Shown piece after piece: positions 1-40,073 of a DNA stretch of 64,000 bases (positions are counted from its first letter, which is position 1; the number at the start of each line of letters is the position of its first letter). The notes below the pieces were generated by a model, which ran no database searches, was not told where the DNA came from, and saw nothing but the letters and a program-made list of their open reading frames with translations. Made by a program: the position numbers and the translations under genes. Source of the DNA: an uncultured Candidatus Saccharibacteria bacterium (GTDB taxonomy: Bacteria > Patescibacteriota > Minisyncoccia > Phycocordibacterales > UBA5272); contig CAZIHL010000001.1 of assembly GCA_964538815.1 (NCBI GenBank), positions 79,034 to 143,033 of the forward strand, read 5' to 3'.

Positions 1-89
1 AGCATTGGTAGAGGTGTATAAAAAATTAATGAGAGCAGTTTAAACTTATGTGTTTACAACAATATATTGATTTTGTATATTGTAAATAA

Positions 90-1163
90 ATGAAAAAAAA
101 TAATTTAAGAAAACAAAAGAAAAAAGTATTTGTCGGAATGAGTGGTGGTGTAGACTCGTCTGTTTCAGCATTGCTTTTAAAAAAGAAAGGTTACGATGTA
201 ACTGGAGTATTTATAAAAGTATGGCAGCCAGATTTTATCGAATGTACTTGGAGAGAAGATAGAAGAGACGCAATGAGAGTTTGTGCTGAGCTTGATATAC
301 CTTTTATTACACTTGATCTTGAAAAGGAATATAAAGAAGGCGTGATTGATTATATGATAAAAGAATATAAAGCAGGGAGAACTCCAAATCCAGATGTATT
401 TTGTAATAAAGAAGTAAAATTTGGAGCATTTTTAGACTGGGCTATCAAAAATGGAGCTGATTTTGTAGCGACAGGACATTATGCTCAAAATAAAATAATA
501 AATAAAGATAATTTTTTAGTAAAAGGAAAAGATTCTTCAAAAGATCAAAGTTATTTTTTATGGACTTTAAATAAAAAACAACTGGAAAAAATAATTTTTC
601 CAGTTGGGAATTTATTAAAGAAAGATATTAGAAAAATAGCAGAAGAAAATAATTTGGCAACAGCAAAGAAAAAAGACTCGCAAGGGCTTTGTTTTATTGG
701 AAAAATAGATGTAAAAGATTTCTTAAAAGAGTATATTAAAAATAAAAAAGGAAAAATAATTGATACAAAATCTAATAAAAAAATAGGTGAGCATAATGGA
801 GTTTTCTTTTATACAATAGGAGAGAAGTTAGATGGAGAATATATTTTAAATAAAGATATTAAAAAAAATATTTTATATGTTGGAAAGAATATAGAAGGTA
901 AAAATATTGAAAATAAAATTTTCTTACAAGAAATAAACTTTACAGAGAATTTAAAAATGGGGGAAACATATGAAGTACAAGAAAGATATCACGCTAAAGA
1001 AGTTAAAATTAAAATAGGTAAATTAAAAGAAAATAAATCTAAAAAAGAATTATTTATCGAATATAATATGGTAAATAAGGAGGATAATTTTGTTTATACC
1101 TCCGGACAATCATTAGTTTTTTATAAAAAAGATAAGCTTTTAGGTGGGGGGATAATGAAATAA
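90..1163 (+). CDS. mnmA: tRNA-specific 2-thiouridylase MnmA
   Basis: N-terminal PP-loop VGMSGGVDSSVSA and the conserved MnmA/TrmU core; 357 aa. Confidence 0.9.
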   Translation: MKKNNLRKQKKKVFVGMSGGVDSSVSALLLKKKGYDVTGVFIKVWQPDFIECTWREDRRDAMRVCAELDIPFITLDLEKEYKEGVIDYMIKEYKAGRTPNPDVFCNKEVKFGAFLDWAIKNGADFVATGHYAQNKIINKDNFLVKGKDSSKDQSYFLWTLNKKQLEKIIFPVGNLLKKDIRKIAEENNLATAKKKDSQGLCFIGKIDVKDFLKEYIKNKKGKIIDTKSNKKIGEHNGVFFYTIGEKLDGEYILNKDIKKNILYVGKNIEGKNIENKIFLQEINFTENLKMGETYEVQERYHAKEVKIKIGKLKENKSKKELFIEYNMVNKEDNFVYTSGQSLVFYKKDKLLGGGIMK

Positions 1164-2594: not shown

Positions 2595-5500
2595 ATGGAG
2601 TTTTCTTTTTTGCGGGTTAGTATTTTTGTTTTTAAATTAGAGCTATTATTTTTTATGTCTAAAACAAAAATTATTAATGAAGGTCTTTTCGTGGCCAATT
2701 TACCTAAAAAGACTTTTCAAAATTTTAGAAAGCCTTTTATCGAGTTACCAAATTTAGTAGAAAATCAAATAATTTCTTTTAAAAAACTTTTAGAAGAAGA
2801 TTTAGAATCGATTTTAAAAGAATTAAATCCAATCAAAGATTACACAGAAAAAAAATTTGAATTAGAAATTATATCTTTTGAGCTTGTCGAACCTAAATAT
2901 TCAGAAGAGTATACAAAAGAAAATAAATTGACCTTTGAAGCATCTATCAGAGCTAAAGTTTTGTTACGAAATAAAATTTTAGGTACAGAAAAAGAACAAG
3001 AAATATTTTTAGCGTCATTACCTATGATGACTGTACACGGGACATTCATAATTAATGGTGTGGAGAGAGTAATTATTCCACAACTTGCAAGAAGTGCCGG
3101 GGAGTTTTTTGATTGCGAAGAAATAAATGGAAAGAAATATTTCTCAGCAAAAATTGTACCAAATCGTGGAGCTTGGGTAGAAATTATCACAGACGATGAT
3201 AACGACATGTTTGTAAAAATAGATAAAAAAAGAAAATTTTCTGTAGTTTCATTGCTTAGAGCTATCGGTTTTTCTACAGATAAGGATATAGAAAATGCTT
3301 TTAGTGGTAAAGATTTAGCTAAAGCTTATATTATGAATTTAGTAGCTAAAGATACTATAAAAACAGCAGACGAGGCTTATATAGATGTTTATAAAAAATT
3401 AAGAGACGGAGATCTTGCTACTGTAGAAAATGCTAAATCTTATATATTATCCTTATTTGGAAAAGAGAGATATGATCTATCTCCAATAGGTAGAATGAGA
3501 TTTAATAAAAGATTTAATATCGAAGGGGACGCAAAAGAAATGAAAAGGATGACTCTTTCAAAAGAAGATATAGTTTTAATTATAAATCATTTAATTGAAT
3601 TAAATAATAATCCAGAAGCAGAAGGAGACGATATAGACCATTTAGCTTCAAGAAGAGTTCGTTTTGTAGGTGAAATGTTAGGAATGAAAATCAAAAAAGG
3701 AATGCTTCAAGTAAAAAGATATATTCAAGAAAAAATGTCAGTTATAGATACTGATACTACTTTACCTGTAACTATTATAAATCAAAGATCACTTCAGGCG
3801 AGAATTAAAGAATTCTTTACAGTGAATCAGCTTTCTCAACTTATGAATCAAGAAAATCTTCTTGCTGAAATAGAGAGTTTAAGAACCTTATCAGCTCTTG
3901 GCCCAGGAGGACTTTCAAAAGATAGAGCTGGATTTGAAGTGCGCGATGTACATACTTCACATTATGGTAGAGTTTGTCCTATTCAAACTCCAGATGGAGC
4001 AAATGTAGGTCTTATTTTAAGATTGGCAGCTTACGCTAAAATAAATGAATTTGGAATAATTGAAACTCCTTATGTGAAAGTTAAGAATGGTAAAATTACA
4101 AAAGAGATAGCATATTTAAATGCTTTACAAGAAGAAAATACTGTTATTGCTCACGCTGGAATTAATTATGATGAAACTGGAAATATAAAAGATCAATTTG
4201 TTCAAGCAAGAAAAAAAGGACATCCAGCAATAGTTTCTAAAGATGAAGTCGAATATGTGGATGTGTCTACAAATCAAGCATATTCAATTGCTACAAGTAT
4301 GATTCCATTTTTAGAACACGATGATGCTGCTCGTGCATCAATGGGTTCAAATATGCAAAGACAAACAGTACCACTAATTTTGGGCGAAGCACCATATGTT
4401 TCAACAGGAATGGAGAGTGAAGCAGCAAGACATATTGGAAGACTAGTGCTTGCAGAAGAAGCCGGAGAAGTAAAATATGTTGATGCTAATAAAATTACAG
4501 TATCAGGAAGTAATGGTAAAGATAAAACTTATACTTTAGTAAACTTTTCAAGAACAAATAACTTTACAGTTTTCTATCAAAGACCAATTGTAAATGTTGG
4601 TGATAAAGTTAAAAAAGGTCAAATTATAGCCGATTCTTCATCTACACGAGGAGGACAGATTTCTATAGGGCACAATGTTCGTGTAGCATTTATGAGTTGG
4701 AACGGAGCAAATTATGAAGATGCTATTATTATCTCAGAGAGGTTAGTAAGACAAAAAAAGTTTTCTTCTATTCATGTTGAAGAACTTGTATGTAATGTTC
4801 GTGATACAAAACTTGGAGCAGAAGTTACAACACACGATATTCCAAATGTAGGAGAAGCTAAATTAAAAAATCTTGACGAAGAAGGAATAATCAGAATCGG
4901 TGCAGACGTAAGAGCTGGCGATATTCTTGTTGGAAAGATTACTCCAAAAGGAGAAACTGAACTTACTCCAGAAGAAAGATTGCTAAGAAGTATTTTTGGT
5001 GAAAAAATACGTGATGTAAAAGATACTTCTCTAAGACTTGATAATGGAAAAAGAGGAAGAGTAATTGGTATTAAAGTTTTCTCAAGAGAAAGAGGAGATA
5101 CACTTGAAAGTGGTGTTATTAAAAGAATTCATATTGAAGTAGCACAACTTCGTGATATTTCAGTTGGAGATAAATTAGCCGGAAGACATGGAAACAAAGG
5201 TGTTATCTCAAGAATTCTTCCAATTGAAGAAATGCCATTTACAGCCGATGGAGAACCGATTGATATTATTTTGACTCCACTTGGTATCCCATCAAGAATG
5301 AATATTGGACAGATTTTAGAAATGCATCTCGGTCTTGCAGCACATACACTTGGTTATCAAGCTATGGTACCAGTGTTTGCTGGGTCAACAGATGAAGAAA
5401 TCAGAGACGAACTTGTAAGAGCTGGTTATGATGAATCTGGAACTGTAGACTTATTTGATGGAAGAACAGGAGAAAAATTTGCAGATAAGGTAGCAATCGG

Positions 5501-5960: not shown

Positions 5961-8900
5961 ATGAAAACAATAGATACAACAAATTTTGAAGCATTGCAAA
6001 TCAAAATTGCCTCACCAGAAGCTATTAGAGCTTGGAGTTATGGTGAAGTTACAAAGCCAGATACTATAAATTATAGAACTGGTAGAAGCGAAAGATCGGG
6101 TCTTTTTGATGAAAAAATATTTGGGCCAGAAAAAGATTATGAGTGTAATTGCGGTAAATATAGAAGGATTAGGTATAAAGATATTATTTGTGAAAAATGT
6201 GGAGTGCAAGTAACAAAATCTATAGTTCGCCGTGAAAGAATGGGACATATTGAATTGACGACTCCTGTAGCACATATTTGGTTTTTAAAAAGCATACCTT
6301 CAAAAATAGCTTTAGTTCTTGGTGAATCAACAGGAGAAGTTGAAAAAGTGGTTTATTTTGCAAATTATATTATTACAAAAGTAAATGAAAGAGAAAAAGA
6401 AGAACTTTTAAAGAATTTAGAAAGTGAATTTAAAGCAAAAATTAAATCTGCCAATGATGAAAAGACAAAAGAAAAATTAAAAGAATTAATGCTTGCAACA
6501 AAAAAAGAAATAATAGATATTCGTGAAAATAAAATATTAGACGAATTAACATATCATAGATATTCTATGAGATATAGCATAGCTTTTGAAGCTGAAATAG
6601 GTCCAGAGGCCATATATAATATTTTCAAAAAAATAAATTTAAATGAATTAGAAGAACAAATATTAAAAAAATTAGAAAAAATTTCTTCTATAGAAAAAGA
6701 AAAACAAGAAAAAAGACTCTCACTTATAAGAGCGTTTAAAAACGCTGGAATTCGACCAGAATGGATGTTCCTTACAGCTCTTCCGGTAACACCTCCAGGA
6801 ATTCGTCCAATGGTTGCTCTTGAAGGAGGAAGATATGCTACAAGTGATGTAAATGATTTATACAGAAGAGTAATTAATAGAAATAATCGTCTCTTAAAAC
6901 TAAAAGAAATTTCTGCACCAGATGTAATCTTGAGAAATGAGAAAAGAATTCTTCAGGAAGCTGTAGATGCTCTTATTGATAACTCAATGAGAAGAGGTCA
7001 AGAAGCTACAACAATTGTAGGACAAAAGAGACAACTTAAATCTCTATCAGATGGTATTAAATCAAAATCAGGTCTATTCCGTCAAAACTTACTAGGTAAG
7101 CGTGTAGACTATTCTGGTCGTTCTGTGATTGTGATTGGTCCGGACCTCGCTCTTGATGAATGTGGACTTCCAAAACATATGGTTCTTGAATTATTCAAGC
7201 CTTTTGTTATTTCAAAATTACTTGAAAGAGAATTCACCTTTAATATTCGTGGAGCAAATAAATTAATCGAAGACGGTATTCCAGAAGTATGGGAAATTCT
7301 TGAAGAAGTGATTGAAGGAAAATATGTTCTTCTAAACCGTGCTCCAACTCTTCATCGACTTGGTATTCAAGCTTTCAAGCCAAAAATGGTTGAAGGAAAT
7401 GCTATTCAACTTCATCCGTTAGTTTGTACCGCTTTCAACGCGGACTTTGACGGAGATCAAATGGCAGTCCATTTACCTCTTGGAGAAGAAGCGCAAAGAG
7501 AAGCTAGAGAGATTATGGCAGCAAATAAAAATCTTTTGAAACCAGGATCAGGAGAATCTATTGTAAACCCTCGTATGGATATGTTACTTGGATGTTTTTG
7601 GCTTACAACAGAAGTGGAAGGAGTTAAAGGGGAGGGAAAATATTTTGGTTCTCCAAATGAGGCTATCACAGCTCATGAATTTGGAATTGTAGATATTCGT
7701 GCAAAAATTAAAGTTGTCCCAACAAATAAAGAAAAATATAAAAAATTCAACGGTCAAAGATTTGAAACTACGGTTGGAAGATTAAGATTTAATTCAATCC
7801 TTCCTGATGATTTTGAATATATCAATGAACAAGTTGGTGGAAATTATATGAATAAGATTATTGATAAAATAATCATGCAATATGGTTTTGAAAGAGCGCC
7901 AGCTATTATTGATAAAATTAAATCCTTTGGATTTAAATATGCAACAATTTCAGGTACAACTTGGAGTATTGATGCAGTGAGAGTTCCAAAAGAGAAAAAA
8001 GAAATTGTAGAAAAAGGAAGAGTAGAAGAAAGAAAAATTAATGAATTCTACGAATCTGGGCTTTTATCAGAAGAAGAAAAATATCAAAAGGTTATAGAAA
8101 ATTGGCTTTCAATTAGAAAAGAAATTGAAAATATTATGCCAACAGAATCAATTGATAAATACGGTTCAGTATATAACTTAGTTACTTCAGGAGCTAGAGG
8201 TTCAATGAAGCAACTTATACAGATTGCAGGCATGAAGGGAATTATTGTTAACTCTTCTGGAAAAAATATTGATTTCCCAGTTATCTCTTCAAACAAAGAA
8301 GGACTTTCTCCAATTGAATACTTCATTACAACTTACGGTGCCCGTAAAGGTACTTCTGACACAGCTCTTAAGACCGCAGAAGCTGGATATTTAACAAGAA
8401 GACTTGTAGACGTGTCACAGGATATTATTATTTATGAAGCTGACTGTGGTACAAAGAATACTAAACTCTTAACAAAAGAAGACGTAATGGGAATTGAAAT
8501 TCCACTCTCAAAGAGTATTCGTGGTAGAGTTCTTGCACAAGATCTACTTGGCAAAGACGGGAATATAATTCTAAAGAAAGGTCATCTAGTTAAAAAAGGA
8601 GACATTAAAGCCATTACTGATAATGGTATAGAAGAAGTATATGTTTACTCACCACTTTCTTGCGAATCATTACATGGAGTATGTCAAAAATGTTATGGTG
8701 CTGACCTTGCAAGAAATGAACTTGTAAAGATTGGTGAAGCGGTTGGTATTGTGGCAGCACAGGCGATTGGAGAGCCTGGAACACAGCTTACAATGCGTAC
8801 ATTCCACTCAGGAGGAGTGGCGGGAGCCGACATTACACAAGGTCTTCCTCGTGTTGCGGAAATCTTTGAAAGACGGGTACCGAAAAATCCTGGTGTTATT

Positions 8901-27398: not shown

Positions 27399-27527
27399 CT
27401 AATAGTATTTGACTAATTATATATAATATAGTATTATCTTTTTGGGAAATTAAATTTAGTATTTTTAAAAATAAGCATATTTAATAAACTTATTTTTATA
27501 ATAAAAACAATTCTTTAAAAACATAAC

Positions 27528-27557
27528 TCGGGGACGGGAGAAAATCCGAACACTACA
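27528..27557 (+). promoter_or_regulatory. conserved 30-nt motif abutting a start codon (copy 1)
   Basis: ctcggggacgggagaaaatccgaacactac, near-identical to the copy at 28518..28547. Confidence 0.5.
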
Positions 27558-27560
27558 ATA

Positions 27561-28460
27561 ATGAAAAAAGAAAATAAAAATGATTCGTCAATTCTTATTG
27601 TTATAATAACTTTATTATCTTTTATTTTGGGTGTAGTTTCTTCTACTTTCATAAAAGAAATAATTGAAGAAATTCGCCTTGCGTTTCTGAGATTTATGGA
27701 AGTGAACCATACTTTTATAGTATGGTCTTTGATTGGGGTGACCACTTTTTATTTTTTTCTAGTGGTAGCATTCTTGCCTCCACCTAAAAAGAAATCTTCT
27801 CAAAAAGAAGAATCAAATCCTAACTCTGGCAGCAATAATAACTCCACTAAAGATGATCAACAGAAAAAGGAGGAAGATGAAGCTAAAAGAAAAGAAGAAG
27901 AAAGAATAAAAAAGGAAAAAGAAGAACAGGAAAGAAGACAGAAGGATGAAGAAGCTAAAAGAAAAGAAGAAGAAAGAATAAAAAAGGAAAAAGAAGAACA
28001 GGAAAGAAGACAGAAGGATGAAGAAGCTAAAAGAAAAGAAGAAGAAAAAGCCAAAAGTAAACAAGAGGAACAAAAAAGAAAAGACGAAGAATCTAAAAAA
28101 GAATCTGAAGCTAAAGATAGTACAAAAGAAAAATATCAAGGTAACTCCTTCTTTTCATTAAAAGTGGAGTCCATTATTTCCAGGATAGAAACCGCCCAAA
28201 AAGGATGGGAAATATTTAAAACCAAAAATATGGATAAACATCATCTTTATGCACAAATCTTTAGTGGATTTGTGGAAGAATTTTTGGTTCTTAATGAAAA
28301 AGAGAACAAAAGAATTTATCGCAAGCTAGCAAAGATGTTTCATCCAGAAGGTGATAATTCTGGGAAAATTGATGGAAAAGTATTAGAGTCAACTTTTCAA
28401 AAGTTGACTAATGTTTATAAAGAACATTATAACTTCTATTTTTCCAAAAAAAATATGTAG
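27561..28460 (+). CDS. membrane-anchored KE-rich repeat protein with degenerate J-domain-like C-terminus
   Basis: N-terminal TM, tandem 24-aa EEAKRKEEERIKKEKEEQERRQKD repeats, C-terminal YRKLAKMFHPEGD (HPD-like). Confidence 0.6.
   Translation: MKKENKNDSSILIVIITLLSFILGVVSSTFIKEIIEEIRLAFLRFMEVNHTFIVWSLIGVTTFYFFLVVAFLPPPKKKSSQKEESNPNSGSNNNSTKDDQQKKEEDEAKRKEEERIKKEKEEQERRQKDEEAKRKEEERIKKEKEEQERRQKDEEAKRKEEEKAKSKQEEQKRKDEESKKESEAKDSTKEKYQGNSFFSLKVESIISRIETAQKGWEIFKTKNMDKHHLYAQIFSGFVEEFLVLNEKENKRIYRKLAKMFHPEGDNSGKIDGKVLESTFQKLTNVYKEHYNFYFSKKNM
27878..28050 (+). repeat. 72-bp tandem repeat (about 2.4 copies) inside the CDS
   Basis: gaagctaaaagaaaagaagaagaaagaataaaaaaggaaaaagaagaacaggaaagaagacagaaggat repeated. 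Confidence 0.8.
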
Positions 28461-28500: not shown

Positions 28501-28517
28501 TTTTTTAAAATCTAAAA

Positions 28518-28547
28518 TCGGGGACGGGACAAAATCCGAACACTGCT
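28518..28547 (+). promoter_or_regulatory. conserved 30-nt motif abutting a start codon (copy 2)
   Basis: atcggggacgggacaaaatccgaacactgc, 4-5 nt before the ATG at 28552. Confidence 0.5.
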
Positions 28548-30211: not shown

Positions 30212-31231
30212 ATGGCATCAGAATTTTTAGATGAAGAAATTTTAAATACAAACAATTCAGAAATTTTTTCATGTAAAATTTTAAAAGAAGACTTTCATAA
30301 ATTTAAATTACTTTCTTCACTTCTAGAAATTCGTGATACTCCAAATTTTTTAAATATTAAAGTAAAAGATGAACAAGTTTTGCAAAACTTTTTAAATAAA
30401 AATTTTGCAGGTGATGATTATAAAGTTCTCACAATAGTTGGTAGTCGTAAAAATTCTACTTATGGTAAGGAGGTTTTAAATTATTTATCAAGATCTCTCA
30501 AAGGGCAAAATATTATAATTGTTTCTGGGCTTGCGCTTGGTATAGATTCATTAGCACACAAAGTTGCACTTCAAAATAATTTTCCGACTATTTCTGTGCC
30601 TGGATCGGGACTTTCTAAAAAAGTAATTTATCCTGCAACAAATGTCAGACTTGCTGAAGAAATTTTAAATACAGGAAATATTCTTGTCTCAGAATATGAA
30701 GATGATCAAAAAAGTAAAATTTATTATTTCCCAGCAAGAAATAGAATAATGGCAGCGATATCTGACGCGGTATTAATAGTAGAAGCTGGTGAGAAAAGTG
30801 GAACATTAATCACAGCGAGACTTGCAATGGAATATGGTAAAAATGTTGGTGTAATTCCAAACACTATTTTTGCTGAAGCGTCAGTTGGGTCAAATAAATT
30901 AATTCAAGACGGAGCATCTCCAATTTTAAATGAATATGACTTGTTAGAACTTTTAAATATTAGTGTTGATAATCAATCAATAATGGATCTTGATTTTAAT
31001 TCTAAAGAAGGCAGAAATAAATTTGAAAAAGCTTTATCATTGCTCAGTATTAACGAAAGAAGTATTTTAGAAAAAATAATTCAAGAAGGAAATATTGAAA
31101 AAGAAGTTTTACTTTCTCAAATAGAAGAAGAGTTTAGTATTTCGTATACAGATATATTGGTAGCATTGATGAGTCTTGAAATAAATGGGTTTATAAAGGA
31201 AGAAATGGGGGAAATACGGATACTAAAATAA
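30212..31231 (+). CDS. dprA: DNA processing protein DprA/Smf
   Basis: Rossmann-like DprA core TIVGSRKNSTYG...VSGLALGIDSLAHKVAL...GTLITARLAMEYGKNV. Confidence 0.85.
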   Translation: MASEFLDEEILNTNNSEIFSCKILKEDFHKFKLLSSLLEIRDTPNFLNIKVKDEQVLQNFLNKNFAGDDYKVLTIVGSRKNSTYGKEVLNYLSRSLKGQNIIIVSGLALGIDSLAHKVALQNNFPTISVPGSGLSKKVIYPATNVRLAEEILNTGNILVSEYEDDQKSKIYYFPARNRIMAAISDAVLIVEAGEKSGTLITARLAMEYGKNVGVIPNTIFAEASVGSNKLIQDGASPILNEYDLLELLNISVDNQSIMDLDFNSKEGRNKFEKALSLLSINERSILEKIIQEGNIEKEVLLSQIEEEFSISYTDILVALMSLEINGFIKEEMGEIRILK

Positions 31232-35169: not shown

Positions 35170-35242
35170 GCCAATATAGCTCAGTTGGTAGAGCACATCC
35201 ATGGTAAGGATGAGGTCATCAGTTCGATCCTGATTATTGGCT
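35170..35242 (+). tRNA. tRNA-Thr(GGU)
   Basis: Acceptor GCCAATA/TATTGGC, anticodon stem CATCC/GGATG with loop ATGGTAA, T-loop TTCGATC. Confidence 0.85.
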
Positions 35243-35375
35243 CCAGTTTTGTAGAAAAAGACACAGAAGACCCAAGAGAGTGGGACGCGCTCCGCTCGGC
35301 AACCCCGAAAGAAAAATGTCTCTTGCTTTTTTGATTTGCGCAGGTTTTCGCTTCGGGATTTTTCGGCGGCGGCTA
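35241..35375. repeat. left arm of a 135-bp terminal inverted repeat (IR-L)
   Basis: Reverse complement of 38331..38466 with only about 4 mismatches. Begins within the last nucleotides of the tRNA-Thr (ctccag). Confidence 0.85.
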
Positions 35376-35404
35376 TGGACAAAAACGACTAAAACTGCTA
35401 AAAT
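35376..35404 (+). promoter_or_regulatory. putative sigma70 promoter TGGACA-N17-TAAAAT giving a near-leaderless transcript
   Basis: Hexamers and spacing read directly from the sequence. The ATG at 35414 lies about 3-5 nt from the predicted TSS. Confidence 0.45.
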
Positions 35405-35413
35405 TCATTTCAT

Positions 35414-38323
35414 ATGGAGAAGCCACATTTTGAAGCACGATTTGGACAAACAAAGAAGACGCTTGAATCTTCGCGAGCGGAAATAAATGAGTTTTTGAAA
35501 CAAGAAACTCTCGACGAACGAGATAGAGTTCGCCTCACTCGTGTTTTGCAATTAGTAGAACGCTATCAACCGGAACGAGAAGTTGAAGAACCAAAAGTTA
35601 ATAAGTGGCGAAGCTATCTCGAAAGCGTGTATCGTTTTTTACCGAGTCGAAAAAAAACGCAAAAACCAATTGAAAATATTTCCGCTCGCTCATATCTACT
35701 TGCTGAAAAAACAATCGCTTCACTTCGGGAACTTCAACATGTAGATTTCCAACTTGAACAAGAAAGTGGATTTTCTGAAGAAGAAGTTTTAAATCAAGAA
35801 CGACCGAGTAAAGTTGAAAGAGAGGAAACATTAGACACTTCTCTTACACTTGAATACGAAAAGAAAAATTGGGGTGTAGAACGAGTTTGTCTTGATGGTG
35901 TGCAAAATCACTTGCCATCAGACTCAAAAGGTGAGCATGTTTGGGTAAGATGTTTAGTTGGTGGCAAGTGGGTTTCTTTGACAGAAGCAAAAGACAAAAA
36001 AGATCAAATAGAAGCGGTGAGATTTGCAGACGATGGCGTTGGTTTTGATGTAAAAAATCTAGTACTTTTATATTCCACAAAAGCGGAGGAAAAAGAATCT
36101 CGCGGACAATTTGGAGAAGGTATGAAAATGATGGCCGCCGCGGCTCTGCGGGAGGGCTTGGAGCCGGAAATGGAATCTCAAGACTGGCGCGCAAAGCCAA
36201 CACCAAAAGAAGTAGAGGTTTTTGATACACGACATCAAAAAGAACGAGTTATTCAACAACTCTCGTTTAAAGTTGACTATTTAGCTGGCGAGCCAATGAT
36301 TGGTTCTCGCACTACTTTTCATAAGCCAACCGAAGCGTTTGTTGACGAGTTAATGCAAATTGAAAAGAAAGTTTTGGCTTTGCGCGAAAATTATCGTCCC
36401 GTTTTTGTGGGAAGTACGGGCGAAATTGTAGATCGTGAATCAGGAAGTCTATTTGTAAAAGGAATTTATGTTAGAGGTAAGAAAACTTTGTTTTCTTACA
36501 ACTTTGAAGATGTTGAAACAAACCGAGATCGCAACAGAATTGTTTCAGAAGGTTTAGAAAGAAGAATTGCAAAAATAGTTCAAGAAATTTCCGATAAACG
36601 ATTGGTTAAAACAATGCTTCAAAAAAGTATTGTGGAACCGGACGCAGTTGAAAGTTCTTTTTATGATCTAAGAGCCGAACATCCAACAGTATGGATTGAG
36701 GGATTTTATGAAGCATTTGGAAAAGATGCAGTTCTGGATACAGGTTTCAAAATCCCCGATACTTTCAAAGATAAGCCGTTGAACAAAGTTAAAGTGCCGT
36801 CTGGCATGCAGAGTTTGCTTTTGCGAGCGGGAGTAAAGACCGACCAAGAGGTCACACCTGATTTTTGGGAGGAAACAATCCCGACTTCCTTAACTCTTGA
36901 ATACGGAAAAGATATTTGGAATGAGGAAAGAATTTTACTTGACGCGGTGCAAAATCATTTACCGCACGATTCCGGCGGTTTAAATATCGGTTTGCGTTTC
37001 AAAACTAAAGATGGCAAGTGGCACTCATTTAGAGATTTACCAGATATTAAAGACGAAGAGGTAGAGTCCGTAAAAATTTATGATGATGGACGCGGATATG
37101 ACTCTCGTTTGCTCGGTTTTTTCTACTCTACAAAAGGAGAGGGTGAAAGCACCGGAAAATTTGGCGAGGGTTTGAAAATGTTGTGCATAGCTTCACTACG
37201 CAAGGGTATTGATATGACTTTGCGTTCTCAAAATTGGTCATCGAAACCGAGAGCGTTACGACAAGAAGTTGATGGAAAGCAAATTGATCAGCTTGTTTTT
37301 GATGTAATTCACGCTGTTAAAAAACAAGAAATGGACGATGATGAGGGGCTTTATCAAAGCAGTTCAACTACATTTTCAAACCCGACGCCGGAATTATTGC
37401 AAGAATTTCGCCAAATTAACAAAAAAGTTCTCGCAATAGAAAGAGCAAAACCAGTAGAAAGAACTTCAAATGGAGATGTACTTTCGCTTGATGGAGGAAT
37501 GGTTTATGTGCGAGAACTTTTGATTCCAGGAGACCACAATTTGCTTTTCACTTATCATTTGCCGAGATTGGAAATTAAAAATCGAGACCGAAGTTTTGTT
37601 GACCAACAAGAACTTACTCCGGCTATCGCAGGGGTATGGTCGGAGACCGAAAATCCTGAAGTTATCAAAAGTTTTCTTTTCAAAGCAAATTTGGAAGCGC
37701 AAAAAGGTGGCGGAAAAGATAAGGTCGAATTTTCGATGGATTTTACCCCCAAAGATACTGAAAACTGGAAAAAGATTTTCGAGGAAGTTTTTGGAAAAGA
37801 TACCGCTATTCGCGATATGCGCTCGGAAGATTTTGACGCTATGCAACAAAATATGCATGTCGGTTTGGAACTTGTATCTTTTCCAAGCGCAACATATCAA
37901 GTTTTGAAAAGACTTGGATTGCCAACATATGAATCTCGTTTATCTGAAATGACCGATGTGGAGCATATTCCTAACGAAGAGCTAACAGCAGAAGAAAAAG
38001 CGTTATTGGAGGTTTTAACAGCGATTGATGAATATTTACCGAACAATAGGCCGTCTGAGATTAAAGTCTATAAGCGCAAAACAGATGGTCAAAAAGTTGC
38101 AGCTGGTTTTGCTGATGGTGTAAATATTCATCTTTTGCGCGAAATTCTATCTGATTTTACTCACGCGGCAGATGTGTATGTTCACGAGAAAACGCATCAT
38201 AATACCGGTGGCGCACAAGACGCAAGTTCAGATTTCAGAAATTACCTAAGTTTTGCGCTGGGCAAGATGGCGTTAGATCAATTGAAAAAAGTTCGACCAG
38301 ATTTAGTAAAGACAGAGAGTTAA
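35414..38323 (+). CDS. 969-aa protein with two tandem GHKL (Bergerat-fold) ATPase modules and a C-terminal HExxH motif
   Basis: A duplicated module of about 350 aa. Each copy has an N-box-like LD[GA]VQNHLP.D, a G1 box DDG[VR]G[FY]D and a G2 box G[QK]FGEG[ML]K (Hsp90/MORC-like). C-terminal VYVHEKTHH. Foreign codon usage (CGN arginine, higher GC). Confidence 0.7.
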   Translation: MEKPHFEARFGQTKKTLESSRAEINEFLKQETLDERDRVRLTRVLQLVERYQPEREVEEPKVNKWRSYLESVYRFLPSRKKTQKPIENISARSYLLAEKTIASLRELQHVDFQLEQESGFSEEEVLNQERPSKVEREETLDTSLTLEYEKKNWGVERVCLDGVQNHLPSDSKGEHVWVRCLVGGKWVSLTEAKDKKDQIEAVRFADDGVGFDVKNLVLLYSTKAEEKESRGQFGEGMKMMAAAALREGLEPEMESQDWRAKPTPKEVEVFDTRHQKERVIQQLSFKVDYLAGEPMIGSRTTFHKPTEAFVDELMQIEKKVLALRENYRPVFVGSTGEIVDRESGSLFVKGIYVRGKKTLFSYNFEDVETNRDRNRIVSEGLERRIAKIVQEISDKRLVKTMLQKSIVEPDAVESSFYDLRAEHPTVWIEGFYEAFGKDAVLDTGFKIPDTFKDKPLNKVKVPSGMQSLLLRAGVKTDQEVTPDFWEETIPTSLTLEYGKDIWNEERILLDAVQNHLPHDSGGLNIGLRFKTKDGKWHSFRDLPDIKDEEVESVKIYDDGRGYDSRLLGFFYSTKGEGESTGKFGEGLKMLCIASLRKGIDMTLRSQNWSSKPRALRQEVDGKQIDQLVFDVIHAVKKQEMDDDEGLYQSSSTTFSNPTPELLQEFRQINKKVLAIERAKPVERTSNGDVLSLDGGMVYVRELLIPGDHNLLFTYHLPRLEIKNRDRSFVDQQELTPAIAGVWSETENPEVIKSFLFKANLEAQKGGGKDKVEFSMDFTPKDTENWKKIFEEVFGKDTAIRDMRSEDFDAMQQNMHVGLELVSFPSATYQVLKRLGLPTYESRLSEMTDVEHIPNEELTAEEKALLEVLTAIDEYLPNNRPSEIKVYKRKTDGQKVAAGFADGVNIHLLREILSDFTHAADVYVHEKTHHNTGGAQDASSDFRNYLSFALGKMALDQLKKVRPDLVKTES

Positions 38324-38330
38324 TTTCTTG

Positions 38331-38466
38331 ATAGCCGTCGCCGAAAAATCCCGAAGCGAAAGCCCGCGTAAATCAAAAAAGCAAGAGACATTTTTCTTTC
38401 GGGGTTGCCGAGCGGAGCGCGTCCCACTCTCTTGGGTCTTCTGTGTCTTTTTCTACAAAACTGGAG
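38331..38466. repeat. right arm of the 135-bp terminal inverted repeat (IR-R)
   Basis: Reverse complement of IR-L. Ends with ctggag (revcomp ctccag). Confidence 0.85.
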
Positions 38467-38530
38467 TGTCTTTATGACTTCGCTCGAACTTACTTTATCA
38501 AAAATTCCTAATGAATCCAAATGCGGACTC

Positions 38531-38574
38531 GGTTTTGCCAAACTATTTTTCTGGGGAAAAGGATTGGCAAAACC
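38531..38574 (+). other. stable hairpin (11-bp stem ggttttgccaa/ttggcaaaacc, 22-nt loop)
   Basis: Perfect complementarity seen directly. Followed by a GC-rich segment and a T8 run at 38636..38643, possibly a terminator for read-through from the 969-aa gene. Confidence 0.4.
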
Positions 38575-38705
38575 TCGGCTGTTTTCCCGCCCGCAGGAGG
38601 GGTCTGGGGAGGAATCCGCATGGGCTGGGCTTCCGTTTTTTTTGTGGCTAAAATGGCTTAAAAACAAAGGTTTTTTAGAGTTAAACTAGGTTATAGCGAT
38701 TTGGC

Positions 38706-38734
38706 TTGACAAAATAGACTAGATATGCTATACT
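38706..38734 (+). promoter_or_regulatory. consensus sigma70 promoter TTGACA-N17-TATACT
   Basis: Perfect -35 hexamer, 17-nt spacer, near-consensus -10. Predicted TSS about 38741. Confidence 0.6.
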
Positions 38735-38954
38735 TAACGCATAATTTGAGGCGGTAAAAATACTCCTTAAATTATGTAAATTGTTCTTTGATAAGCGAGA
38801 TTAGTGAAAATTTCTTTTGCTCTACTACTTCGTGAGTAGCATAGTATGTATCTCAATTTGAGGTATCTAGTGTGCTACTCATGTTGAGGAGCCCTTGATG
38901 CGAGGAACGTATCATTAAAAAAAAATTTTTGATATGATATTATGGTCTAACGAG

Positions 38955-39698
38955 ATGGGCGAGAGGGGGCGAGGAGCCTGGCTGTTATTTATAAAGGATG
39001 ACGAAGTCATCGTCTTCCGCGGCCAGAACATCCCCGGTGTGGTCGTCGTGCGCGGCACGGACTACACCAAGAACGGGAAGTGGTCTCACACCACCTACCG
39101 CCTCCAGCTTGTCCCTGGAGTTCGCCAGATAGCCGGATACTCCGGCTGGGAAACCGGTCGGTTCGTCGAAGGCCTCGGCTCCGCCGTTGGCTGCGCAACG
39201 CCCGACACGTGGGCGGACACGGCCAAGGCTCTTGGGGTTTCGGTCCCGAGCGTGATGGAGTTCCTGCGGAGCTGGCGTCCGAAAGCCGCGGCGAAGCTGG
39301 ACGAAGTCGAGCAGGCGTTGGCCGATCTCGAGGAAGCCTCCTCTCAACAGGAGACCGACTCGGTGATCGTTACCGTCTCCTTCGGTTCGCCGACCAACCG
39401 CGCCATCAGCGATGGCTACTGGGTGGCGCCGAAGGCGATCCCGGGCTACAATGCGGAGATCCACCTGAAGGATCGCTCGCAGGGCTGGAACGAGGGGAAC
39501 ATCGAGGTTGTCGGAATCTCCGGCACCATCCTCTCGGTCAAGCACTCGGCCGGAATGCACGGCGGTTACTACGCCGTGTCGGTCGCGGTGATACCCGGAA
39601 CGGAGACCGAGATCCCGCCCTTCGAGACCAGCAAGCCTTGTAACGGTGGTAACACCGTGTTGGGCGATGCCCTCCGTAAGGCAGGGCTCCGCAGCTAG
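38955..39698 (+). CDS. hypothetical protein encoded by a very high-GC, GC3-rich foreign CDS
   Basis: A 744-bp frame with GC3 almost entirely G/C and balanced amino-acid composition. The alternative frames are Arg/Gly-rich junk. The ATG at 38955 marks the switch from AT-rich to GC-rich sequence. The in-frame upstream ATG at 38934 is an alternative start. Confidence 0.6.
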   Translation: MGERGRGAWLLFIKDDEVIVFRGQNIPGVVVVRGTDYTKNGKWSHTTYRLQLVPGVRQIAGYSGWETGRFVEGLGSAVGCATPDTWADTAKALGVSVPSVMEFLRSWRPKAAAKLDEVEQALADLEEASSQQETDSVIVTVSFGSPTNRAISDGYWVAPKAIPGYNAEIHLKDRSQGWNEGNIEVVGISGTILSVKHSAGMHGGYYAVSVAVIPGTETEIPPFETSKPCNGGNTVLGDALRKAGLRS

Positions 39699-39747
39699 TC
39701 TCGTATCGTATTTCCAGTTTGAGAGGACTGGGTTAACAAAACCTCTC

Positions 39748-39799
39748 TCTGTCGATAAGTGTGTTACTTATCCTGATGAGTCCGAAAGGACGAAACAGA
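39748..39799 (+). ncRNA. hammerhead ribozyme, type III topology (open stem III)
   Basis: tctGUC cleavage site, then stem I GATAAG-tgtgtta-CTTATC, then CUGAUGA, then stem II GTCC-GAAA-GGAC, then GAA, then ACAGA pairing with UCUGU. Every conserved core position is present. Confidence 0.8.
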
Positions 39800-39931
39800 T
39801 TGTACCTTGAGAAAATTTAGTTCTCTCGTGAGTAGCGCAATGGATGTCTTAAAAAGATTTCTAGTGCTGTCGGATACTTCGGACCAATTACGAGAGGGGA
39901 AATAAAATAAAAATAAATTTATTGTATAGAA

Positions 39932-39968
39932 TAACTCCATAGCTGTCAGTCGGGAGTTATTTTTTATT
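39932..39968 (+). terminator. intrinsic terminator
   Basis: taactcc-(14-nt loop)-ggagtta followed by ttttttattt. Confidence 0.6.
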
Positions 39969-39999
39969 TCTCACAATTTTGTTAAAATGTGCTTTAAGG

Positions 40000-40073
40000 C
40001 CATCTTAGCTTAGTTGGTAGAGCACTTCACTCGTAACGAAGAGGTCTCGAGTTCGATCCTCGGAGATGGCTCA
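40000..40073 (+). tRNA. tRNA-Thr(CGU)
   Basis: Acceptor GCCATCT/AGATGGC, anticodon loop CTCGTAA, T-arm TCGAG-TTCGATC-CTCGG. One A:C mismatch at the base of the anticodon stem. Confidence 0.8.

Follow-up and report, generated by a model that had tools for sequence, protein, structure and literature searches.

Two groups of described elements come closest to the locus reported here. Mobile insertion cassettes (MICs) hold one or two cargo genes within inverted repeats, contain no transposase and spread horizontally, MIC231 of Bacillus cereus being one example with a passenger gene. Tn3-type MICs carry TALE genes in Xanthomonas (PMC4337579). The termini of MICs are short repeats of a known insertion sequence (IS) or transposon family, which are conserved between copies and flanked by target-site duplications. 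The second group comprises integrase-less islands at tRNA genes, known as cis-mobilizable elements (CIMEs). Satellite tycheposons of Prochlorococcus (bioRxiv 10.1101/2020.12.28.424599) are a related integrase-less comparison. We analysed a 64,000-nt stretch (the window) of contig CAZIHL010000001.1 from an uncultured Candidatus Saccharibacteria bacterium, in which a gene for a 969-aa GHKL-type protein is enclosed by long inverted repeats directly at the 3′ end of tRNA-Thr(GGU). The repeat is the local copy of an architecture that recurs in one clade of Patescibacteria (candidate phyla radiation, CPR); its arms evolve in concert, and the cassette is horizontally transferred and foreign to its host. 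With moderate confidence, we regard it as an accessory cassette of the tRNA trailer in which intramolecular recombination and gene conversion maintain the similarity of the long inverted repeats.

A repeat search places the arms at 35241–35383 and 38324–38466 (143 nt, 95% complementary, spacing 2940 nt). Explicit pairwise alignment defines a core in which 132 of the 136 positions are identical (Table 1); all four mismatches (35338, 35342, 35345 and 35369) are transitions, and the outer 97 nt (35241–35337 and 38370–38466) match perfectly. The original prediction, made from the sequence alone, had described reverse-complementary arms of 135 bp with about four mismatches, and apart from coordinates that were one base off this description holds. 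It was also correct in placing the tRNA-Thr 3′ end in the left arm, which opens on the last 5 nt of the tRNA (CTCCA) while the right arm terminates in CTGGAG, and in finding a single cargo gene and no transposase between the arms. The small mirrored open reading frames (ORFs), which it had dismissed as artefacts, indeed lie within the repeat and match no family. The core ends 37 nt before the ATG on one side and begins 7 nt after the stop codon on the other. An arm 30-mer occurs exactly twice in the window and in none of 100 shuffles, and the runner-up inverted repeat of the 64 kb is an AT-rich one of 54 nt with 70–74% identity. In Rfam, at gathering as well as permissive thresholds, the arm corresponds to no known RNA; the matches were to tRNAs and to one hammerhead elsewhere.

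Table 1. Features of the cassette and its surroundings in the window, and arms around related genes in other assemblies
Feature	Position	Strand	Arm length	Arm-to-arm identity	Remarks
tRNA-Thr(GGU)	35170..35245	+			ARAGORN; Rfam tRNA 67.4 bits
Left arm	35241..35376	+	136 nt	97.1%	136-nt core; weaker similarity to 35383
Left-arm outer module	35241..35291	+			tRNA end + trailer + GTGGGACGCGC; matches 5′ half of the compact L075 trailer hairpin
Promoter-like site	35376..35404	+			TGGACA-17-TAAAAT, TG-extended; predicted by consensus scan alone, 10/12 matches
Cargo gene	35414..38323	+			969-aa protein; two GHKL/Bergerat-like modules, C-terminal HExxH (VHEKTHH)
Right arm	38331..38466	-	136 nt	97.1%	core 7 nt past stop codon; weaker similarity from 38324
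Right-arm outer module	38416..38466	-			matches 3′ half of the L075 trailer hairpin
Module X	38467..38516	+			flank directly outside the right arm
Gene-less solo left arm	38519..38675	+			same type as the arms around the gene in L048, L057 and L058
tRNA-Thr(CGU)	39999..40072	+			right limit of the foreign inter-tRNA island 35246-39998
Arms of L048-L051/L063			142 nt	98.6%	
Arms of L056/L057			≥313 nt	99.7%	contig end cuts arm
Arms of L058			≥96 nt	100%	
Arms of L053			145 nt	95.2%	
Arms of L054, L055, L061			51 nt	100%	
Arms of L060			≥101 nt	100%	
Arms of L045			62-66 nt	93.5%	
Arms of L059			≥46 nt	100%	
Arms of L003			39 nt	85%	Smith-Waterman, z = 9.5

Since inverted chimeras are known in amplified or short-read data, a repeat in one genome window might be an assembly or amplification chimera, or else a one-off neutral inverted duplication without biological continuity. 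An independent Logan contig (L001, SRR12712853), which two other samples share, is the same as window 35308–38399 and ends on both sides exactly 30 nt (k−1) inside the perfect repeat, as for a real repeat. Because of these ends, we conclude that the reads themselves contain the repeat and that this assembly did not create it. Moreover, arms with 3–5% divergence (the window and L053) cannot be collapsed copies, and the same architecture is found in independent NCBI, ENA, JGI and Logan assemblies, which stem from different studies and different hosts. The chimera or one-off reading is therefore already largely refuted, and we consider it extremely improbable. The repeat breaks short-read graphs, and many homologues lie on contigs of 3.1–3.7 kb that end within the arms.

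Flanking inverted repeats surround the same gene in other metagenomes as well and form at least eight distinct arm sets, that of the window among them, with arms of 39 to more than 313 nt, and the right arm begins 1–11 nt past the stop codon in every repeat-bearing locus. The relatives from representative genomes (L002–L043, among them those with 71–87% amino acid identity) have no flanking repeat detectable by BLAST, save a weak one in L003; they first suggested a feature specific to the window, an idea that was overturned by the closest metagenomic relatives. The original prediction had proposed looking for arm copies elsewhere. The window's own arm sequence has no further copy in the 64 kb and an exact 25-mer of it finds no match in other collections (see below), but flanking inverted repeats recur in the relatives.

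Within a genome, the two arms are 93–100% identical, whereas matching arm stretches from different genomes are 75–88% identical or consist of different modules. The divergence of arms between genomes is about that of the gene itself; between L048 and L057, for example, the arms are 86.5% identical over 141 nt and the gene is 84% identical. The inner arm ends are conserved and have the common motif TTTT(C/G)GGCG(N)CGGC. The outer parts are modules (which we named Wout, Wcore, M, A1, A2, I and X) that are combined differently by lineage, the window arm being composed of Wout, Wcore and Win. Module X lies beyond the right arm in L048, L058, L066 and L071, in the opposite orientation to that in the window, and upstream of the gene in L075, in the window orientation; the junction of CTGGAG with TGTCTTTA is common to the window and L075.

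This pattern is reminiscent of the plastid genome inverted repeat, whose arms are likewise near-identical within a genome and divergent between genomes, with shifting boundaries and with indels copied to both arms. The plastid repeat is about 25 kb long, and its boundaries are subject to 'ebb and flow'. Unlike it, the arms described here measure 0.04–0.4 kb, lie in a bacterial chromosome around a mobile accessory gene and are not universal in the lineage.

Next to module X, the window contains a complete solo left arm without a gene, and alignment shows that its homology to the gene-bracketing arms ceases where the ATG would be. A 17-mer from this solo arm gave 22 viral matches, none of which extends past the seed, and these are due to chance. 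We also observed that in L054 (3676–3800) an inverted copy of the inner part of the arm (GACGGACGGGATTTTTGGCGACGAC) follows the right arm at a distance of about 57 nt and produces a local hairpin; this solo arm beside a cassette is a second example, like that in the window.

The original prediction likened the locus to a non-autonomous foldback element or miniature inverted-repeat transposable element (MITE) with a passenger gene. The looser notion of a mobile, non-autonomous cassette with a passenger gene is partly right, the unit having been transferred horizontally, but the label has to be dropped because the locus fails three of the four defining features of a MITE. Terminal inverted repeats are present; a target-site duplication, dispersed copies with conserved termini and a small non-coding size (less than about 0.8 kb) are not. 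The bracketed unit is 3.2 kb long, carries the 969-aa gene and contains no transposase. The target-site duplication that the original prediction had proposed to look for just outside the arms is absent, the flanks being ...ATTATTGG before the left arm and TGTCTTTA after the right arm with no direct repeat, and the arms of L048, L053 and L045 likewise showed no such duplication.

A broader version of this explanation is that a transposase supplied in trans binds the arms and moves the cargo, as for a MITE, a foldback element or a MIC. It would fit inverted repeats around a single gene with no transposase, the horizontal mobility of the cassette, the solo arm that adjoins it, and the loci L056 and L057, which share a 98.8% identical element and differ in the flanks beyond. 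We nevertheless consider it unlikely. In addition to the lack of a target-site duplication, there is one copy in the 64 kb, solo arm aside, and an exact 25-mer of the arm has 0 matches in JGI metagenome or viral contigs (diverged copies would escape one exact 25-mer). The outer termini vary between lineages and the inner ends are conserved, which is the reverse of what is seen in transposon terminal repeats, and the arm length ranges from 39 to more than 313 nt. The boundary repeats of L003 (see below) are direct and tRNA-derived. The loci compared show neither a partner element nor an IS whose ends match the arms, although no IS-end database was searched, and the IS110-family transposase gene of L061 interrupts the arm rather than sharing it. 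This gene replaces the outer left arm in L061 (3–725), L054 (3–305) and L055, so that the arm is cut to 51 nt. Long arms with variable outer ends, the absence of a duplication, the lack of a matching IS in the loci compared, and the single copy also distinguish the cassette from MICs.

Nucleotide homology between the window and its relatives extends from the ATG to the stop codon. In a comparison of the window with L048, the GHKL protein is 88% identical, compared with 55% for FtsE and 44–66%, in segments, for RF2; both cassettes adjoin a tRNA-Thr gene and lie upstream of prfB–ftsE. The cassette gene is common, at 83–93% identity, to hosts of very different base composition. Phage carriage of the cargo gene was considered and rejected, there being only two viral contigs with distant homologues (25–26% identity).

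Of about 21 distinct loci in the CPR clade, 14 have a tRNA gene within 1 kb of the cargo gene. By our own estimate of about one tRNA per 20 kb for such genomes, about 6–10% of loci would be expected by chance. The associated tRNAs, mostly upstream and co-oriented, are Thr (GGU, CGU and UGU), Leu, Val (twice), Ser and Arg. No tRNA is nearby at Firmicutes- or CPR-affiliated homologues of ≤37% identity, and two archaeal homologues (L025 and L035) do have a tRNA (tRNA-Pro or tRNA-Ala) at this distance of 1 kb or less. In L048, the cassette lies directly 3′ of the tRNA-Thr(CGU) isoacceptor. A minus-strand 'tRNA-Thr(UGU)' reported by ARAGORN in L056 has a non-canonical sequence and no Rfam match, and was discarded.

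Several loci carry further traces at the tRNA 3′ end. In L062, tRNA-Thr(UGU) has the same tRNA-end/trailer junction as the window, ctcca followed by GTTTTGTAGAAAAAGA. L003 has direct repeats at 2584–2657 and 6265–6340, about 75 nt long as judged by eye (blastn aligns 52 nt at 92%), which start with the last 6 nt of tRNA-Ser(CGA) (CCGCCATTAAAC...) and enclose a whole cassette of helix-turn-helix (HTH) and GHKL genes including its inverted repeats; no integrase is present. Partial duplicates of the tRNA 3′ half (T arm and acceptor end) are found downstream of the intact tRNA-Thr in L075 (2414–2760), at a distance of about 135 nt, and in L057 (4200–4402, minus strand), where a diverged copy lies about 60 nt away. 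These duplicates are att-like scars that point to repeated integration at these tRNA genes, and all four loci bear signatures of recombination at tRNA 3′ ends.

The host genome is AT-rich (about 28% GC) and of the Patescibacteria type. Housekeeping genes precede the island (RNase R, S16, a KH protein, TrmD and YggU) and follow it (RF2, FtsE, FtsX and a class I Trp/Tyr-type tRNA synthetase, Pfam tRNA-synt_1b). In contrast to the host, the stretch between the two tRNA-Thr genes is compositionally foreign, with a GC content of about 40% across the cassette and 64% across 38.9–39.7 kb; the cargo gene has a GC3 of 0.30, compared with 0.17–0.20 for host genes. Recombinase domains are absent from 25.4–46.1 kb, a stretch that takes in the island; no recombinase gene is found up to about 10 kb away, and the island itself contains no integrase gene. 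A DprA gene (DNA_processg_A) is located at 30212–31231, 4 kb upstream of the island; DprA is part of the natural-transformation machinery. An exact-protein look-up of the neighbouring TrmD, aimed at strain variants, returned no record. Further upstream, beside tRNA-Ala, an 86% direct repeat (TCGGGGACGGGAnAAAATCCGAACACT; 27511–27554 and 28501–28544) flanks a lysine/glutamate-rich ORF of 299 aa (27561–28460).

The cassette resembles CIMEs and tycheposons in being a small cargo island of atypical composition at a tRNA 3′ end that lacks its own integrase. Two tRNA-island features, the tRNA 3′ end and the atypical composition, are present in the window itself. The L003 direct repeats that begin in a tRNA 3′ end and the tRNA 3′-half duplicates of L075 and L057 extend the likeness. 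CIMEs and tycheposons are defined by direct att repeats, whereas in the window the tRNA 3′ end is not directly repeated where the island stops; the sole tRNA-derived repeat of the window is the 5-nt overlap, in which CTCCA is inverted, and a different tRNA-Thr gene marks the far limit of the island. To our knowledge, neither class is known for long internal inverted repeats.

L075 provides a locus in which the arm halves are joined. Here, tRNA-Thr(UGU) is followed by its 3′-half copy and then by a diverged Wout, GTGGGACGCGC, TTC, GCGCGTCCCAC, a reverse Wout and module X. The alignment shows that the two halves of the resulting hairpin correspond to the two outer arm halves of the window, with a 3-nt loop between them; at the position of this loop the window has 3.1 kb, consisting of the inner arms and the gene. 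The gene of L075 comes a little further on, after module X, where the window has the gene-less arm. With a predicted folding energy of −37.9 kcal/mol (z = −4.2), the hairpin looks like a bidirectional terminator. It could be either an unoccupied site or the scar of a symmetric deletion, which strand slippage at the palindromic GCGC of the break would make possible.

We propose that the arms act at the DNA level, as substrates for intramolecular homologous recombination and gene conversion. Conversion would keep the arms of one genome near-identical, while the arms of different genomes would drift and gain or lose modules. The 2.9-kb segment could in principle be inverted, and a symmetric deletion would be possible, for which the L075 hairpin is a candidate scar if it is not an unoccupied site. 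Movement between hosts would most likely proceed by recombination at the conserved tRNA 3′ end, using either a recombinase supplied in trans or, in a host that encodes DprA, homology-anchored recombination after DNA uptake. This route of mobility is our inference from the features of the loci.

Several points weigh against this proposal. The close relatives L002, L004, L006, L013 and L064 are without the repeat, and the right arm of L062 has been lost by deletion. Because close relatives without the repeat retain the gene, the repeat is dispensable for keeping it. Among the loci compared, none has the gene reversed with respect to a unique flank that it shares with another locus, and diverged further copies of the arm would escape the metagenome and viral scans, which used one exact 25-mer. 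Gene conversion as the homogenising force is suggested by the identity pattern, and the proposal leaves the origin of the repeat without explanation.

A more speculative variant gives the repeats an active part in movement. The cassettes would then be mobile elements of a new kind, with no dedicated transposase or integrase, and their self-homogenising inverted repeats would excise and insert at the apex of the tRNA-trailer hairpin by a palindrome- or cruciform-mediated process. The L075 hairpin would then represent a site that is empty or has been vacated, the solo arm of the window would be a vacated neighbour, and the GHKL/HExxH cargo protein might help. We think that this variant is quite unlikely to be correct.

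The arms might instead function in RNA. If the gene were co-transcribed with the tRNA, the arms could pair into a duplex of about 136 bp that resembles the stem of an rRNA operon, and cleavage by RNase III would free the tRNA and leave an mRNA with paired, protected ends. In the RNase III processing stems of rRNA operons, complementary sequences likewise directly flank a functional RNA near tRNA genes. The arms lie very close to the coding region; 11 loci have the tRNA ahead of the gene in the same orientation, in some of them only 25–32 nt from the ATG (L002 and L005), which suggests read-through; and three of the four mismatches in the window are compatible with G–U pairing on the sense strand. 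Over four loci, however, 10 of 15 transitions are G–U compatible on that strand, which is not different from chance, so that, unlike in rRNA stems, wobble-compatible mismatches show no significant strand bias. Single arms fold no better than shuffles, and close relatives whose gene is intact lack the repeat. Furthermore, a promoter-like site lies inside the left arm at its inner edge and, as predicted from its sequence, would yield a near-leaderless mRNA without the left arm. Many close relatives have a gene for a 65- to 72-aa XRE/HTH_3 protein 3 nt upstream of the cargo gene (4-nt start offset), within the repeat, and in these an AT-rich region that is promoter-like by eye separates the left arm from the genes. 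Since these AT-rich or promoter-like sites are located inside the arm, the mRNA would be expected to lack the left arm. Taken together, we rate a function of the arms as an RNA stem as distinctly unlikely.

The original prediction had also raised flipping of the segment by homologous recombination or an invertase, a possibility that would make the 2.9-kb segment a phase-variation switch, turned by an invertase or RecA, which is ON as long as the gene and the tRNA promoter point the same way and OFF in the inverted state. The structure permits inversion: long, near-perfect inverted repeats can serve as its substrate, and the gene is just downstream of a strong tRNA transcription unit. In L060, a divergent gene for a large serine recombinase (1–1131, minus strand; Resolvase, Recombinase and Zn_ribbon_recom domains) abuts the long left arm. 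The locus thus resembles invertons, switches of the Hin/Gin/Cin type and shufflons, in which inverted repeats flank a potentially flippable segment. Such invertible segments have short sites (about 10–50 bp) and an adjacent site-specific recombinase, and they occur in both orientations in populations. None of these three hallmarks was found here, orientation being judged from the assembled loci. Typical invertase sites are far shorter than the arms; no invertase or recombinase is encoded in the island or within about 10 kb, recombinases are near some relatives only, and the serine recombinase of L060 has no homologue in the window. In all three loci with an ftsEX context (the window, L048 and L056) the gene is co-oriented with ftsE, and the promoter-like site would travel with the gene. 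A switch is therefore a very unlikely explanation.

Two candidate signs of inversion were examined and rejected. In reverse complement, the left flank of L060 matches the right flank of L061 (98.75% over 240 nt), as in an inversion polymorphism, but the homology ends at 240 nt and L060 has the module on both sides, which identifies it as an outer arm module and not as a unique flank. The NUDIX genes beside L045 and L048 were considered as an orientation marker and are not detectably homologous.

The architecture of the cassette is undescribed. Patescibacteria have tiny genomes with few recognisable mobile elements, and little is understood of how they exchange accessory genes. Should the arms play a part in movement, they would represent an undescribed route of gene transfer; if they are a by-product of recombination, they still explain why this gene is fragmented in short-read assemblies, and they mark a recombination hot spot next to tRNA-Thr.

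The two GHKL-like modules of the cargo protein appear to be an internal duplication (35822–35916 versus 36869–36963). Matches to Pfam HATPase_c and to a sacsin-like domain are weak, phrog_6077 is matched at 2e-32, and the precomputed domains of relatives are PF25856, PF13589 and PF02518. PADLOC, NCBIfam and PDB sequence searches gave no match. The AlphaFold model has a pLDDT of 84.7, and its best PDB matches in Foldseek are the N-terminal domains of Hsp90 and MutL, with marginal E-values. A single paper that mentions MPN635 appears to be concerned with genome editing and not with the family of the cargo protein. We treat the cargo as a putative conflict-type accessory protein. A distant homologue (32% identity) is found on a 3571-bp contig labelled archaeal (L017), which has terminal direct repeats of 57 nt (88%; 1–57 and 3515–3571) and a weak flanking inverted repeat (z = 7.9), and may be a small circular or bounded element.

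The island contains a second gene, an ORF of 254 aa at 38934–39698, whose GC content of 64% contrasts with that of the genome (about 28%). With GC1, GC2 and GC3 values of 0.60, 0.48 and 0.80, it is clearly coding. It has no match in Pfam, PHROG, NCBIfam or PADLOC. Patescibacteria metagenomes contain more than 220 unnamed homologues with 55–86% amino acid identity; most are about 345 aa long, the window copy being shorter by about 90 C-terminal residues. The ORF is preceded by a near-consensus promoter-like site (TTGACA-17-TATACT, 38706–38734). A type III hammerhead ribozyme follows at 39746–39801, 47 nt past the stop codon, with a score of 44.2 bits (E = 5.5e-8), just under the Rfam gathering score of 48.5. 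A full-text literature search found no paper that combines 'hammerhead ribozyme' and 'candidate phyla radiation'. The order of ORF and hammerhead is repeated in the marine contigs L108–L110, and an upstream hammerhead is present in L106 and L107 too. A hairpin motif (CGTGAGTAGCA ... TGCTACTCATG, then TCGAGGAGCC) is located ahead of the ORF at 38823–38883, and a degenerate copy follows the hammerhead at 39825–39890. In L108 (about 1560–1640), the motif separates the hammerhead from the next GC-rich gene. Such an arrangement suggests that the motif may be a conserved 5′-UTR element in operons that are processed by the hammerhead.

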